From the sequence record NC_054912.1: a DNA stretch of 64,000 nt. The stretch is one strand, 5' to 3'. Position numbers and translations under genes: made by a program. Of this stretch, positions 53,140 through 64,000 are shown piece after piece. The notes beneath the pieces were generated by a model. The model was not told where the DNA came from. It did no database searches and saw only the letters and a program-made list of their open reading frames with translations. Source of the stretch: Escherichia phage vB_EcoM_F1. Each line of letters opens with the position of its first letter. The stretch's first letter is position 1.

Positions 53140-53147
53140 TATAAATA
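53140..53147 (+). promoter_or_regulatory. late promoter TATAAATA (gene 34)
   Basis: exact TATAAATA about 35 nt upstream of the gene 34 ATG. Confidence 0.7.
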
Positions 53148-57059: not shown

Positions 57060-58175
57060 ATGGAAAAATTTATGGCAAAGTTTGGACAAGGATATGTCCA
57101 AACGCCATTTTTATCGGAAAGTAATTCAGTAAGATATAAAATAAGCATAGCGGGTTCTTGCCCGCTTTCTACAGCAGGACCATATGTCAAATTTCAGGAT
57201 AATCCTATTGGAAGTCAAACATTTAGCGCAGGACTTCATTTAAGAGTTTTTGACCCTTCTACAGGAGCATTAGTTGATAGTAAGTCATATGCTTTTTCGA
57301 CTTCAAATGATACTACATCAGCTGCTTTTGTTAGTTTCATGAACTCTTTGACGAATAATAGACTTGTTGCTATATTAACTAGCGGAAAGGTTAATTTTCC
57401 TCCAGAAGTAGTATCTTGGCTAAGAGCCACGGGAACGTCTGCTTTTCCATCTGATTCTATATTGTCAAGATTTGACGTATCATATGCTGCCTTTTATACT
57501 TCTTCTAAAAGAGCTATTGCATTAGAACATGTTAAACTAAGTAATAGAAAAAGCACAGATGATTATCAAACTATTTTAGATGTTGTATTTGATAGTTTAG
57601 AAGACGTTGGAGCTACTGGGTTTCCAAGAAGAACGTATGAAAGCGTTGAGCAATTTATGTCAGCGGTTGGTGGAACTAATAACGAAATTGCACGTTTACC
57701 AACTTCATCCGCGATAAGTAAATTATCTGATTATAATTTAATTCCTGGCGATGTTCTTTATCTTAAAGCGCAGCTATATGCTGATGCCGATTTACTTGCG
57801 CTTGGAACTACAAATATATCTATCCGTTTTTATGATGAATCGAATGGATATATTTCTTCAACACATGCTGAGTTTACTGGACAAGCTGAGTCATGGGAAT
57901 TAAAGGAAGACTATGTAGTTGTTCCTGAAAATGCAGTAGGATTTACGATATATGCACAAAGAACTGCACAAGCAGGTCAAGGTGGCATGAGGAATTTAAG
58001 TTTTTCTGAAGTATCAAGAAATGGCGGAATTTCAAAACCTGCAGAATTTGGCGTCAATGGTATTCGAGTTAATTATGTCTGTGAATCTGCTTCACCTCCA
58101 GATATAATGGTACTTCCTACACAAGCATCGTCTAAAACTGGTAAAGTGTTTGGACAAGAATTTAGAGAAGTTTAA
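57060..58175 (+). CDS. 35: long tail fibre hinge protein gp35
   Basis: 371 aa, MEKFMAKFGQGYVQTPFLSES... Confidence 0.9.
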   Translation: MEKFMAKFGQGYVQTPFLSESNSVRYKISIAGSCPLSTAGPYVKFQDNPIGSQTFSAGLHLRVFDPSTGALVDSKSYAFSTSNDTTSAAFVSFMNSLTNNRLVAILTSGKVNFPPEVVSWLRATGTSAFPSDSILSRFDVSYAAFYTSSKRAIALEHVKLSNRKSTDDYQTILDVVFDSLEDVGATGFPRRTYESVEQFMSAVGGTNNEIARLPTSSAISKLSDYNLIPGDVLYLKAQLYADADLLALGTTNISIRFYDESNGYISSTHAEFTGQAESWELKEDYVVVPENAVGFTIYAQRTAQAGQGGMRNLSFSEVSRNGGISKPAEFGVNGIRVNYVCESASPPDIMVLPTQASSKTGKVFGQEFREV

Positions 58176-58902: not shown

Positions 58903-61900
58903 ATGGCTACTTTAAAACAAATACAATTTAAAAGAAGCAAAACCGCAGGAGCACGTCCTGCCGCTTCAGTATTAGCCGAAGGTGAATTGGCTATAAACTT
59001 AAAAGATCGCGTACTTTTTACTAAAGATGACCAAGGAAATATTATTGATCTGGGTTTTGCTAAAGGCGGTAGCATTGACGGGAATGTTATTCATACAGGA
59101 AACTATAATCAAACTGGTGATTATACTTTAAATGGCACCTTCACTCAGACAGGTAATTTTAATTTAACTGGTATTGCTCGAGTAACTCGCGATATTATTG
59201 CCGCCGGGCAAATTATGACCGAGGGCGGAGAACTTATTACAAAAAGTTCAGGTACAGCACATGTTCGTTTTTTCGATAACAATAGTCGCGAACGCGGAAT
59301 CATTTATGCCCCGGCTAATGATGGTTTAACTACACAAGTACTTAATATCAGGGTTCAAGACTACGCCGCTGGTAGCGAAAGCACTTATGCATTTTCAGGC
59401 AGTGGACTATTTACTTCACCTGAAGTATCAGCATGGAAATCTATTTCGTCTCCACAAATTCTGACCAACAAAGTCATTACTAATAATAAATCTACGGGTG
59501 ATTATGACATCTATTCGATGGCAGACAATGTTCCATTGTCTGAAAGCACTACTGCTATTAATCATCTTCGTGTCATGCGTAATGCCGTTGGTTCTGGTAT
59601 TTTCCATGAAGTTAAAGATAATGATGGAATAACTTGGTATGCAGGTGATGGACTTGACACCTATCTTTGGTCATTTACTTGGAGCGGCGGAATTAAATCA
59701 AGTCACTCAATTTCTATTGGTTTAACACCTGGTAATAAAGATTATTCAATATTAGGACCATCTAGTATTGCTTTAGGAGATAATGATACTGGATTTAAAT
59801 GGCATCAAGATGGATATTATTTCAGCGTTAATAATGGAACAAAAACGTTTTTATTTAGTCCTAGCGAAACAACTAGCCTAAGAAAATTTGTAGCTGGATA
59901 TTCTACTAACGGAACCGATTTAACTACTCCTCCAACTGAAAATTATGCTCTTGCTACTGTAGTGACATACCACGATAATAACGCGTTTGGAGATGGTCAG
60001 ACTCTTTTAGGATATTATCAAGGCGGTAATTATCATCATTATTTTCGCGGTAAGGGTACTACAAACATTAATACTCATGGCGGTTTGTTAGTTACTCCAG
60101 GTAATATTGACGTTATTGGTGGTTCTGTTAATATTGATGGTCGTAATAATTCTTCTACGCTGATGTTTAGAGGTAACACAACTGGTAGTAGTTCAGTTGA
60201 TAACATGACAATTTCTGTGTGGGGTAATACATTTATTAATCCTAGCGAAGGTAATCGCAAAAATGTCATGGAAATTTCTGACGCAACTAGTTGGATGAGC
60301 TATATTCAACGAACAACTGCAGGTAAAGTCGAATCGGTTATAAATGGCACCCAGATTGTTAATGAAAACTTGACAGTAGTAAAAAATGCTACATTTGACG
60401 GTACAATCAGCGCAGCCGGTGAAATCGCGACAAATGCTGTAAATGGTCTTCGCATTTGGAATGCAGATTATGGAGCCATTTTTAGACGTTCAGAAGGCAG
60501 TCTTCATATTATTCCAACTGCTTACGGTGAAGGTAAATATGGCGATATCGGTCCACTTCGCCCGTTTAGTATGGCTTTAGATACTGGTAAAGTTACTATT
60601 CCAGATTTACAATCAAGTTACAATACGTTCGCAGCAAACGGCTATATTAAATTTACTGGTCACGGTGCGGGCGCTGGCGGTTATGCCATTCAATATGCTC
60701 AAGCGGCTCCTATTTTCCAGGAAATCGATGATGATGCTGTAAGCAAATATTATCCTATTGTTAAACAGAAGTTTTTAAACGGTAAATGCGTTTGGTCTTT
60801 AGGTACTGAAATTAATTCGGGTACATTCGTTATTCATCATCTGAAAGAAGATGGTTCACAAGGACATACGTCTCGTTTTAATCAAGACGGTACCGTTAAC
60901 TTCCCAGATAACGTTTCTGTCGGCGGCGGTGAAGCTACTATTGCTCGCAATGGTAATATCTTCTCTGATATTTGGAAACCGTTTACTTCTGCAGGTGATA
61001 CTACAAATATTCGCGATGCTATTGCGACTCGTGTTTCGAAAGAAGGCGACACGATAACAGGCAAATTGACTTTATCGGCAGGTAATGATGCCCTTGTTTT
61101 AACTGCAGGCACGGGCGCTTCATCGCACATCCGTAGTGATGTAGGTGGTACAAATAATTGGTATATAGGCAAAGGCGGCGGCGACAATGGTCTAGGTTTT
61201 TACAGTTACATTACACAAGGCGGTGTATACATAACAAATAACGGCGAAATAGCGCTTTCTCCTCAAGGACAAGGAACGTTTAATTTTAATAGAGATCGCC
61301 TTCATATAAATGGTACACAATGGACTGCGCACCAGGCTGGCGATTGGGGAAGTCAATGGAAACAAGAAGCTCCCGTATTTGTGGATTTTGGCTACGTCGG
61401 TAATGATAGTTATTATCCAATTATCAAAGGAAAATCTGGTATTACTAACGAAGGATATTTTTCCAGCGTTGATTTTGGTATGCGACGCATTCCTAATAAC
61501 TGGGCACAAGGTATTATTCGTGTAGGTAATCAGGAAAACGGTTCCAACCCACAAGCTATCTTCGAATTCCACCATAATGGAAACATGTACGTTCCTGACA
61601 TGGTTAAAGCTGGAGCAAGAGTATCAGCTGGTGGAGGTGACCCTGTATGGACAGGCGCATGTGTTGTTATTGGTGATAATGATACCGGATTAGTTCATGG
61701 TGGTGATGGGCGAATTAACATGGTTGCAAATGGAATGCATATTGCTTCGTGGTCGTCCGCTTACCATCTCCATGAAGGTCTTTGGGATACCACTGGTGCT
61801 CTGTGGACTGAACACGGAAGAGCTATTATTTCTTTTGGTCATTTAGTCCAACAAAGCGATGCCTATTCCACATTTGTCCGCGATGTTTATGTCCGTTCTG

Positions 61901-62232
61901 ATATTCGTGTTAAAAAAGACCTCGTTAAATTTGAAAATGCTTCTGAGAAGCTTTCCAAAATTAATGGTTACACTTATATGCAGAAGCGAGGCCTAGATGA
62001 AGAAGGCAATCAGAAATGGGAACCTAACGCCGGTTTAATTGCTCAAGAAGTTCAAGCTATTTTGCCAGAATTAGTTGAAGGTGACCCGGATGGTGAAGCT
62101 TTACTTCGTTTGAACTATAACGGTGTAATTGGTTTAAATACAGCTGCAATCAATGAGCATACTGCAGAAATTGCGGAACTTAAATCAGAAATTGAAGAAC
62201 TTAAAGCATTAGTTAAATCATTGTTAAAATAA
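58903..62232 (+). CDS. 37: long tail fibre distal subunit gp37 with C-terminal intramolecular chaperone domain (T2-type)
   Basis: 1109 aa; N-terminus [36 protein letters not shown]; C-terminus SDIRVKKDL...[31 protein letters not shown] resembles S74-type autocleaving chaperone domains. Confidence 0.9.
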
Positions 62233-62263
62233 TAAGAGGGGCTTCGGCCCCTTGGAGGTTTAT

Positions 62264-63058
62264 ATGGCAGTAACAGGACCGTGGGTAGGATCGTCTGCAG
62301 TAGTTAATACAGGACAAAATTGGATGGGTGGCGCGGCCCAACGATTAAGAATGGGTGCTCCATTTTGGATGAGTAATATGATAGGTCGATCTGTTGAAGT
62401 AATTCACACACTTGGAGCGGACCATAACTTCAATGGTCAATGGTTCCGAGATAGATGTTTTGAGGCAGGTAGTGCACCTATAGTGTTTAATATCACTGGA
62501 AATTTGGTATCATATTCTAGAGATGTTCCTTTATTCTTCATGTATGGAGATACACCGAATGAATATGTTCAGTTGAATATTAGTGGCGGCGCCCACATGT
62601 GGGGTAGAGGTGGACAAGGTGGATGGACTCATTCCGGCGGAGATGGTAATGGCCAACAAGGTGGCCATTGTATTCAAAATGACATTGGCGGACGATTAAG
62701 AATTAATAACGGCGGAGTAATTTGTGGCGGTGGAGGCGGTGGTGGTGGTATCGCTTATCGTCCTCACTCTGGCGCAAAATGGCAAGATATTGGTGGTGGC
62801 GGAGGAAGACCATTTGGGCCAGGAGGCGGTGGTGGTTATTCCGGCGGCGCAGCTTCTTATGATGGCCCAGGAGGTGGTTATAATTATGGTAATGCTCACT
62901 CTGGCCAGGGTGGTGATGCTGGCGCAAATGGACAAAATGCCTGGCATGATGGCGGTAAAGTTCTAAAAGTCGGGGCTGGCGGAGCTGCTGGTTATGCCGT
63001 CATAGGGTCTACACCGACATGGCAAAACGTTGGAGCAATATATGGTCCAAGAGTATAA
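62264..63058 (+). CDS. 38: T2-type receptor-binding adhesin gp38 with glycine-rich motifs
   Basis: 264 aa from ATG 62264 ([13 protein letters not shown]...), SD GGAGG; poly-Gly runs GGGGGGGG, GGGGG, GGGGG separated by variable segments. Confidence 0.85.
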
Positions 63059-63088: not shown

Positions 63089-63745
63089 ATGGCAGCACCT
63101 AGAATATCATTTTCGCCCTCTGATATTCTGTTGGGTGTTCTAGATCGCTTGTTCAAAGATAACGCTACCGGGAAGGTTCTTGCTTCCCGAGTAGCTGTCG
63201 TAATTCTTTTATTTATGATGGCGATTGTTTGGTATAGGGGAGATAGTTTCTTTGAGTACTATAAGCAATCAAAGTATGAAACATACAGTGAAATTATTGA
63301 AAAGGAAAGAACTGCACGCTTTGAATCTGTCGCCCTGGAACAACTCCAGATAGTTCATATATCATCTGAGGCAGACTTTAGTGCGGTGTATTCTTTCCGC
63401 CCTAAAAACTTAAACTATTTTGTTGATATTATAGCATATGAAGGAAAATTACCTTCAACAATAAGCGAAAAATCACTTGGAGGATATCCTGTTGATAAAA
63501 CTATGGATGAATATACAGTTCATTTAAATGGACGTCATTATTATTCCAACTCAAAATTTGCTTTTTTACCAACTAAAAAGCCTACTCCCGAAATAAACTA
63601 CATGTACAGTTGTCCATATTTTAATTTGGATAATATCTATGCTGGAACGATAACCATGTACTGGTATAGAAATGATCATATAAGTAATGACCGCCTTGAA
63701 TCAATATGTTCTCAGGCGGCCAGAATATTAGGAAGGGCTAAATAA
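63089..63745 (+). CDS. t: holin T
   Basis: 218 aa, MAAPRISFSPSDILLGVLDRLFKDNATGKVLASRVAVVILLFMMAIVWYRG...; single N-terminal TM. Confidence 0.95.
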   Translation: MAAPRISFSPSDILLGVLDRLFKDNATGKVLASRVAVVILLFMMAIVWYRGDSFFEYYKQSKYETYSEIIEKERTARFESVALEQLQIVHISSEADFSAVYSFRPKNLNYFVDIIAYEGKLPSTISEKSLGGYPVDKTMDEYTVHLNGRHYYSNSKFAFLPTKKPTPEINYMYSCPYFNLDNIYAGTITMYWYRNDHISNDRLESICSQAARILGRAK

Positions 63746-64000
63746 TTATTTGTTTGTATACATCTCTAGATATCGATATACACCCTCAAAACCCTCGTTG
63801 AATTCGTCGATGAGGGTTTTCTTATCTTCTTGAGTTAATTCAGAAACAATTTTACGGAATGAATTCTGATTTAACTTTCTACCTTCATGTGTTACTCCAA
63901 TCTCATTCAGAAATGCAATAAAATTAGCACGATTTTCAACAATATCTTCTCTGGAAAATTTAATTAAAATAGACGCAACAGTAATAATTTCACGAACTGT
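63746..64000 (-). CDS. asiA: AsiA anti-sigma70, 5'-truncated by window edge
   Basis: reverse translation ends ...LIDEFNEGFEGVYRYLEMYTNK*; stop at 63746-63748. Confidence 0.85.
   Translation of the reverse strand, partial: TVREIITVASILIKFSREDIVENRANFIAFLNEIGVTHEGRKLNQNSFRKIVSELTQEDKKTLIDEFNEGFEGVYRYLEMYTNK

Follow-up and report, generated by a model that had tools for sequence, protein, structure and literature searches.

The window (the whole stretch of 64,000 nucleotides of DNA that was analysed) encodes a short, glycine-rich protein between the distal long tail-fibre subunit gp37 and the holin t, which raises the questions of whether this protein is the receptor-binding adhesin of the phage, which receptor it recognises and how the locus has evolved. 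The gene very probably codes for a monomeric, OmpA-recognising T2-type gp38 adhesin, that of vB_EcoM_FN (FN). Over the gp38 gene and the 20 kb compared, the window matches Escherichia phage vB_EcoM_FN (MZ170041.1) at 100 % DNA identity, and the counterpart coding sequence (QYW00614.1), from which the gp38 product does not differ in sequence and for which OmpA and LPS are the published receptor, is annotated merely as 'tail fibers protein'. This phage, a Tequatrovirus, was sourced from poultry sewage in Portugal. The gp38 gene, its family, fold type and modular evolution, and the receptor of vB_EcoM_FN are all already known from published work. The features of the locus are collected in Table 1.

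Table 1. Features of the gp38 locus, with positions in the window (aa, residues of the protein named)
Feature	Position	Strand	Basis or remark
gp37, distal long tail-fibre subunit carrying gp38 at its tip	58903..62232	+	1109 aa, length equal to PP01 gp37
gp37 C-terminal intramolecular chaperone module, aa 999-1109	61897..62229	+	Peptidase_S74 match, SDIRVKKD motif position
UUCG-tetraloop hairpin AGGGGC-TTCG-GCCCCT	62237..62252	+	in the 31-nt gap between gp37 stop and gp38 start; ends 1 nt 5' of the Shine-Dalgarno sequence
Shine-Dalgarno GGAGG, 5 nt 5' of the gp38 ATG	62254..62258	+	read from the sequence
gp38 adhesin coding sequence	62264..63058	+	264 aa + stop (start ATG 62264, stop 63056-63058); ORF list, translation, Pfam, PHROG, PDB, DNA match
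gp38 N-terminal attachment domain, aa 1-40, docks on gp37 trimer tip	62264..62383	+	Gp38_N match; role from S16 structure
gp38 beta-helix domain, N-terminal part, ~aa 46-106; most conserved segment	62399..62581	+	identity profile, 9V85/6F45 alignment; approximate boundaries
gp38 predicted polyglycine (PGII) sandwich and hypervariable loops, ~aa 107-240; receptor-specificity module	62582..62983	+	PP01/S16 structure alignment
gp38 loop A equivalent, aa 121-128, WTHSGGDG	62624..62647	+	same in FN, CE1, SH7, wV7, RB32, FL08, AV119
gp38 glycine run G8, GGGGGGGG, aa 155-162	62726..62749	+	G155-G161 (7/8 columns) invariant in 10/10 aligned adhesins
gp38 loop B equivalent, aa 165-174	62756..62785	+	same in RB32, wV7, CE1
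gp38 glycine run G5 (GGGGG), aa 177-181	62792..62806	+	inside invariant GGGGGRPFG motif
gp38 second glycine run G5 (GGGGG), aa 187-191	62822..62836	+	sequence
gp38 loop C equivalent, aa 189-192, here very short	62828..62839	+	same in every OmpA-class relative compared
gp38 loop D equivalent, aa 207-211, NYGNA	62882..62896	+	same in RB32, wV7; N207Q in FL08, AV119
gp38 loop E equivalent, aa 227-233, WHDGGKV	62942..62962	+	same in RB32, wV7, SH7
gp38 conserved C-terminal segment, aa 241-264	62984..63055	+	invariant columns; folds back onto beta-helix domain (role from literature)
Holin t, conserved flank 3' of the variable cassette	63089..63745	+	Pfam Phage_holin_T, E 5.1e-118

Profile comparison of the gp38 product returned two Pfam adhesin families and no others, GP38 (PF05268; E 2.5e-68; 230.6 bits against a cut-off of 25; 218/218 model positions) and Gp38_N (PF21721; E 1.6e-21; 76.5 bits against a cut-off of 25; 40/40 positions), together with PHROG 2056, described as 'tail fiber protein; host specificity' (E 6.6e-111). 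Two solved adhesin structures were also matched, namely the PP01 gp38 receptor-binding domain (PDB 9V85; E 3.5e-73; aligned aa 37-264) and S16 gp38 (PDB 6F45; E 2.5e-52; aligned aa 1-261). These full-length family and structure matches uphold the adhesin assignment of an earlier note on this DNA, which had also described a protein of 264 residues with polyglycine runs of eight, five and five residues; length and runs were all found as claimed, and no observation runs counter to the assignment. As is typical of T2-type gp38, the C-terminal half contains five conserved glycine-rich motifs separated by hypervariable segments, and the glycine columns are invariant over ten adhesins with differing receptors, while the intervening segments diverge. 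The label 'T2-type' given in the earlier note describes the architecture but not the sequence, as T2 gp38 itself is just 46 % identical.

In the public records of wV7, HY03 and T6 the adhesin bears the label of the T4-type protein, 'distal long tail fiber assembly catalyst', which is a chaperone that assists the folding of gp37 without becoming part of the virion and leaves receptor binding to gp37. This label is an annotation transferred from T4, and is opposed by the full-length matches to adhesin families alone and to two adhesin structures, while the authors of the FN preprint report no homology to T4 gp38. Furthermore, T6 gp38 amber mutants are described in the literature as producing virions that are normal in morphology but unable to adsorb, and gp37 in the window possesses a chaperone module of its own, matching Pfam Peptidase_S74 ('chaperone of endosialidase') at aa 999-1058 (E 1.1e-12). 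A T4-type chaperone, for which the similarity expected of such a protein was not found and alongside which gp37 carries an S74 module, was rejected as a reading of this gene and can practically be discounted. The gp37 partner is instead of the T2 type, with the S74 domain and the sequence SDIRVKKD from aa 999, where cleavage is presumed. Removal of the C-terminal S74 chaperone module is established for the S74 family and for T2-type gp37. By analogy, gp37 is probably cleaved after S998 (VYVRS/DIRVKKD), which would expose the tip for gp38. A Gp34_trimer-like domain is also present in gp37 (aa 449-556).

The loop-region protein, when used in a tblastn search, matched 143 phage records, of which 42 share at least 95 % amino acid identity and a further 30 share 90-95 %, counts that are probably too low as a result of low-complexity filtering. 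The matches belong to phages of Escherichia, Shigella, Salmonella and Yersinia. Aside from the T4 chaperone name, the adhesin is misnamed in public records as 'tail protein and peptidase' or 'hypothetical protein', and the HY03 record misnames neighbouring genes too, with gp36 given as a P-loop NTPase and RNase H as a terminase.

The glycine content of gp38 is 36 % in residues 111-264 as opposed to 13 % in residues 1-110. The G+C content of the gene (0.48) exceeds that of the whole window (0.365) because the glycine-rich C-terminal half uses GGN codons; a foreign origin, considered on account of the high G+C, was dismissed, as these codons account for the excess.

Judging by the alignments with PP01 and S16 gp38, with which the protein shares the glycine motifs, the product would adopt the same three-domain fold, consisting of an attachment domain, a beta-helix domain and a PGII sandwich. 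A single-sequence AlphaFold2 model (pLDDT 31.4; pTM 0.20) was discarded. Both N-terminal strings cited in the earlier note occur in the gp38 translation, but the long 'conserved gp37-docking region' that it drew from them does not hold. The attachment domain extends over only ~aa 1-40, as delimited by Gp38_N and by the PP01 receptor-binding construct, which begins at residue 41, and is modular (64-99 % nucleotide identity), while the second string (HTLGADHNF...NITG) falls in the conserved beta-helix domain. Over aa 1-45, nucleotide identity is 99 % to SH7, 96 % to ELT1 and CE1, 93 % to FL08, 80-84 % to HY03, PP01, AV119 and wV7, and 62-64 % to RB32 and T6. Over the beta-helix domain (aa 46-106) it is 93-97 % to HY03, ELT1, wV7, RB32, PP01, FL08 and AV119, and ~74 % to T6. 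At the C-terminus, P251, W253 to G257, I259, Y260, G261, R263 and V264 are invariant among the ten aligned adhesins.

The receptor class was read from an alignment with the gp38 proteins of CE1, SH7, wV7, RB32, FL08, AV119, T6, T2 and PP01, through which receptor loops A-E were carried over from the PP01 crystal structure. That the inter-glycine loops determine receptor choice, as the earlier note had proposed, is established for the family as a whole (Trojet 2011; Terasaki 2026; Lutz 2025). The experimentally characterised adhesins RB32, RB33, FL08 and AV119 served as OmpA anchors, and T6, T2, PP01 and S16 represented other classes, with K3, Ox2 and M1 left out. In tests on Keio mutants, RB32 and RB33 were found to need OmpA and intact LPS, and RB5 chimeras carrying only the ~400-bp loop segment of RB32 gp38 gained this OmpA/LPS specificity (Trojet 2011). 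FL08 and AV119 carry OmpA-dependent 'type 1' adhesins (Lutz 2025).

Each of the five loops of the gp38 in the window (5/5) has the same sequence in RB32 and wV7. Amino acid identity over aa 107-240 amounts to 98.5 % with RB32 and wV7 and to 92-93 % with FL08 and AV119, compared with 56 % for T6, ~52 % for PP01 and 44 % for T2. The two differences from RB32 in this region, S107G and A110V, both lie ahead of loop A, and when the comparison is extended to aa 264 they are joined by T250A and A258V, so that none of the four substitutions (0/4) is inside a loop. The RB32/RB33 protein also shares the same beta-helix domain, but differs in its attachment domain, which is of another type (62 % of amino acids and 64 % of nucleotides identical, plus an insertion of two residues) that matches a T6-like gp37. 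Within the clade, loop B has K, N or R at position 172 and P or V at position 167, and loop E carries H228Y in CE1 and H228S in FL08 and AV119. FL08 and AV119 belong to the same receptor class and conserve the predicted contact residues, but differ at P167V, K172N, D200V, G201A, N207Q, A221G and H228S, loop substitutions that could alter the range of OmpA loop variants recognised. The OmpA contacts predicted in silico for type 1 adhesins (R165 to A170, R181, D217 and R262 in FL08 numbering) are kept in FN as R166, H168 to A171, R182, D218 and R263, with the exception of V166, which is replaced by P167.

The loops are thus shared with experimentally OmpA-dependent adhesins, which defines the OmpA class (RB32 type; 'type 1' of Lutz 2025). 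As loops A-E match RB32 exactly and aa 107-240 are 92-93 % identical to FL08 and AV119, OmpA is predicted as the receptor of gp38, together with a requirement for the LPS core. The alignment of variable segments that the earlier note had put forward as a check leads to the same prediction, and the results obtained with vB_EcoM_FN itself concur: in drop tests the phage did not infect Keio mutants in ompA, rfaG, rfaY, rfaH or the heptosyltransferase II gene, and adsorption was significantly lower after periodate treatment of host cells (FN preprint). For SH7, the published paper contains no receptor experiment.

Single loop substitutions can switch the receptor of such adhesins, with Q206L toggling RB51/RB68 gp38 between OmpF and OmpW in published work, and four substitutions separate the window gp38 from RB32 in aa 107-264; an adhesin directed at Tsx, OmpC, OmpF, FadL or OmpW as primary receptor instead of OmpA was therefore weighed. 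The four substitutions are all off-loop, however, with the loops identical to RB32, and the identity to the adhesins of T6 (Tsx), PP01 (OmpC) and T2 is low. Taken with the FN Keio tests, which indicate OmpA, this makes another primary porin very unlikely. The adhesins of these other classes differ from the OmpA-class protein in different ways. PP01 shares a beta-helix domain that is 98 % identical at the amino acid level and a gp37 that is 91 % identical in DNA, with whole gp38 identity at 71 %, but the loops of PP01 and S16 are unrelated and recognise OmpC; in PP01, loops D and E have been cross-linked to OmpC loops 5 and 7 (Terasaki 2026). T2 (FadL/OmpF) and T6 (Tsx) share the family, gene position and glycine-motif scaffold, but differ in their loops and attachment-domain type, T6 gp38 being 67 % identical overall.

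LPS may enter into recognition by the OmpA-class gp38 in either of two ways. Direct contact of gp38 with both OmpA and the LPS core would fit with the periodate effect and the resistance of several rfa mutants reported for FN, as well as with the chimeras of RB5 and RB32, in which LPS sensitivity follows the gp38 loop segment of RB32 (Trojet 2011). Alternatively, the effect of LPS could be an indirect one, exerted via the abundance or conformation of OmpA or via the short tail fibres: LPS defects alter outer-membrane protein composition indirectly, as Trojet 2011 cautioned, and a large genetic screen links the sugars of the LPS core primarily to the short fibres formed by gp12. Direct contact with both is possible, albeit rather unlikely.

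Assembly and adsorption may be envisaged as follows for the OmpA-recognising adhesin. The gp37 chains would trimerise with the aid of their own C-terminal S74-type chaperone module, which would then be cleaved off, and a single gp38 would dock on the exposed gp37 tip via its first ~40 residues, as suggested by the S16 structure, with the 1:3 gp38:gp37 stoichiometry taken from relatives. By alignment, the glycine motifs are expected to pack as a polyglycine-II sandwich from which five short loops are presented at the distal fibre tip; such a sandwich with projecting loops has been shown for PP01 and S16, and the location of gp38 at the virion tip and its requirement for adsorption are documented in the literature on T6, S16 and PP01. 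The loops would bind the extracellular loops of OmpA as the reversible first step of adsorption. An intact LPS core would also be required, a requirement which in the loop-identical RB32 moves with the gp38 loop segment. As vB_EcoM_FN lysed just ~3 % of a tested set of pig ETEC/STEC strains (preprint), recognition of OmpA by gp38, although host range depends on it, clearly does not suffice to set that range.

On the + strand, the genes are arranged in the order gp34, gp35, gp36, gp37, gp38 and holin t, as they are in RB32, wV7, T2, T6 and PP01, with gp34 encoding 1289 aa and gp36 matching Pfam Phage_T4_gp36. The tail-fibre hinge protein gp35 (57060-58175) matches Pfam ILEI over aa 58-125 (E 4.4e-8, over the curated cut-off), an unexpected family name (interleukin-like EMT inducer / FAM3-type) for a phage fibre protein. 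Late-promoter-like motifs (TATAAATA) are found at 53140 and 58207, just 5' of gp34 and gp36, respectively, and in the window none occurs directly 5' of gp37 or gp38. Since such a motif precedes gp36 but neither gp37 nor gp38, the arrangement is consistent with gp36, gp37 and gp38 forming a single late transcription unit. The 54-nt context of the stable UUCG hairpin between gp37 and gp38 folds at -15.8 kcal/mol, and its 100-nt window is 98-100 % identical in 6/10 of the relatives profiled. A terminator role is not supported on the + strand, where the hairpin lacks a downstream T-run; only the - strand was flagged in the scan, and the fold z-score is just -1.7. The hairpin may instead serve mRNA stability or the coupling of translation. 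A second, terminator-like hairpin (63788-63820; 14 pairs and a T-rich tail) lies 3' of the holin stop, inside the convergent asiA coding region (~63746-64018, - strand) as placed by synteny with the FN record. The holin of wV7 is annotated as 6 nt longer (663 nt) and overlaps asiA, with the 100-nt profile window at 63700 aligning at only 14 % identity, which is probably due to an indel or a sequencing difference near the 3' end of t in that record.

The evolution of the locus was traced by profiling identity to ten relatives in steps of 100-nt windows from gp36 through gp37 and gp38 to t. The holin gene is uniform, with 98-99 % nucleotide identity to nine of the ten (wV7 93.6 %) and dS values of 0.02-0.06. 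Conversely, gp37 is a patchwork in which blocks of 100-300 nt change nearest relative: at 61100-61300, CE1, SH7 and PP01 are 91-97 % identical as against 47-69 % for HY03, ELT1, wV7 and FL08, while at 60300 SH7 and AV119 fall to ~40 %. Within gp38, identity to RB32 steps from 63 % to 95 % near 62400, and that to PP01 drops from 98 % to ~51 % near 62560-62600 and returns to 88-99 % past 63000. Codons 191-230 (120 nt) hold no nucleotide difference from RB32, wV7, HY03 and ELT1, and the following 60 nt (codons 231-250) hold 12, with T6 the closest relative there. Over codons 241-264, T6 is again nearest (92 % nucleotide identity, versus 84 % for RB32 and wV7), which suggests that the 3' end of gp38 is a separate short conversion tract. 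On the evidence of these profiles, gp38 is a cassette between conserved flanks, the attachment, loop and C-terminal pieces of which appear to be exchanged separately among T-even phages. A recombination-prone gp38 cassette is also the published view, and the recombination hotspot suspected in the earlier note is supported by the contrast between a uniform holin gene and gp37 and gp38 genes that switch nearest relative.

Compared with RB32, the loop region has accumulated 21 synonymous and two non-synonymous differences (dN/dS 0.027). The loops are constant within the OmpA class under strong purifying selection. The 'variable' inserts of the earlier note do vary between receptor classes, but are constant within this class (dN/dS ~0.03 vs RB32). 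At synonymous sites the loop region has diverged by ~0.24, against the 0.02-0.06 of the adjacent holin gene. It is conceivable, but doubtful, that the FN OmpA loop module represents an old allele lineage, its protein held by purifying selection and patched by very short gene conversions, and that off-loop substitutions (S107, A110, T250 and A258) or the pairing of attachment and loop modules contribute to the unusually narrow host range.

The loops known as 'hypervariable' are thus strongly conserved inside one receptor class, and that class can be told from loop identity. It is gp38 that should be read, or swapped, when the host range of T2-like biocontrol phages is to be predicted or re-engineered. 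With an OmpA-class allele, resistance via ompA or LPS-core mutations is foreseeable, and for vB_EcoM_FN such resistance was accompanied by serum sensitivity and weaker adhesion to host cells (preprint).
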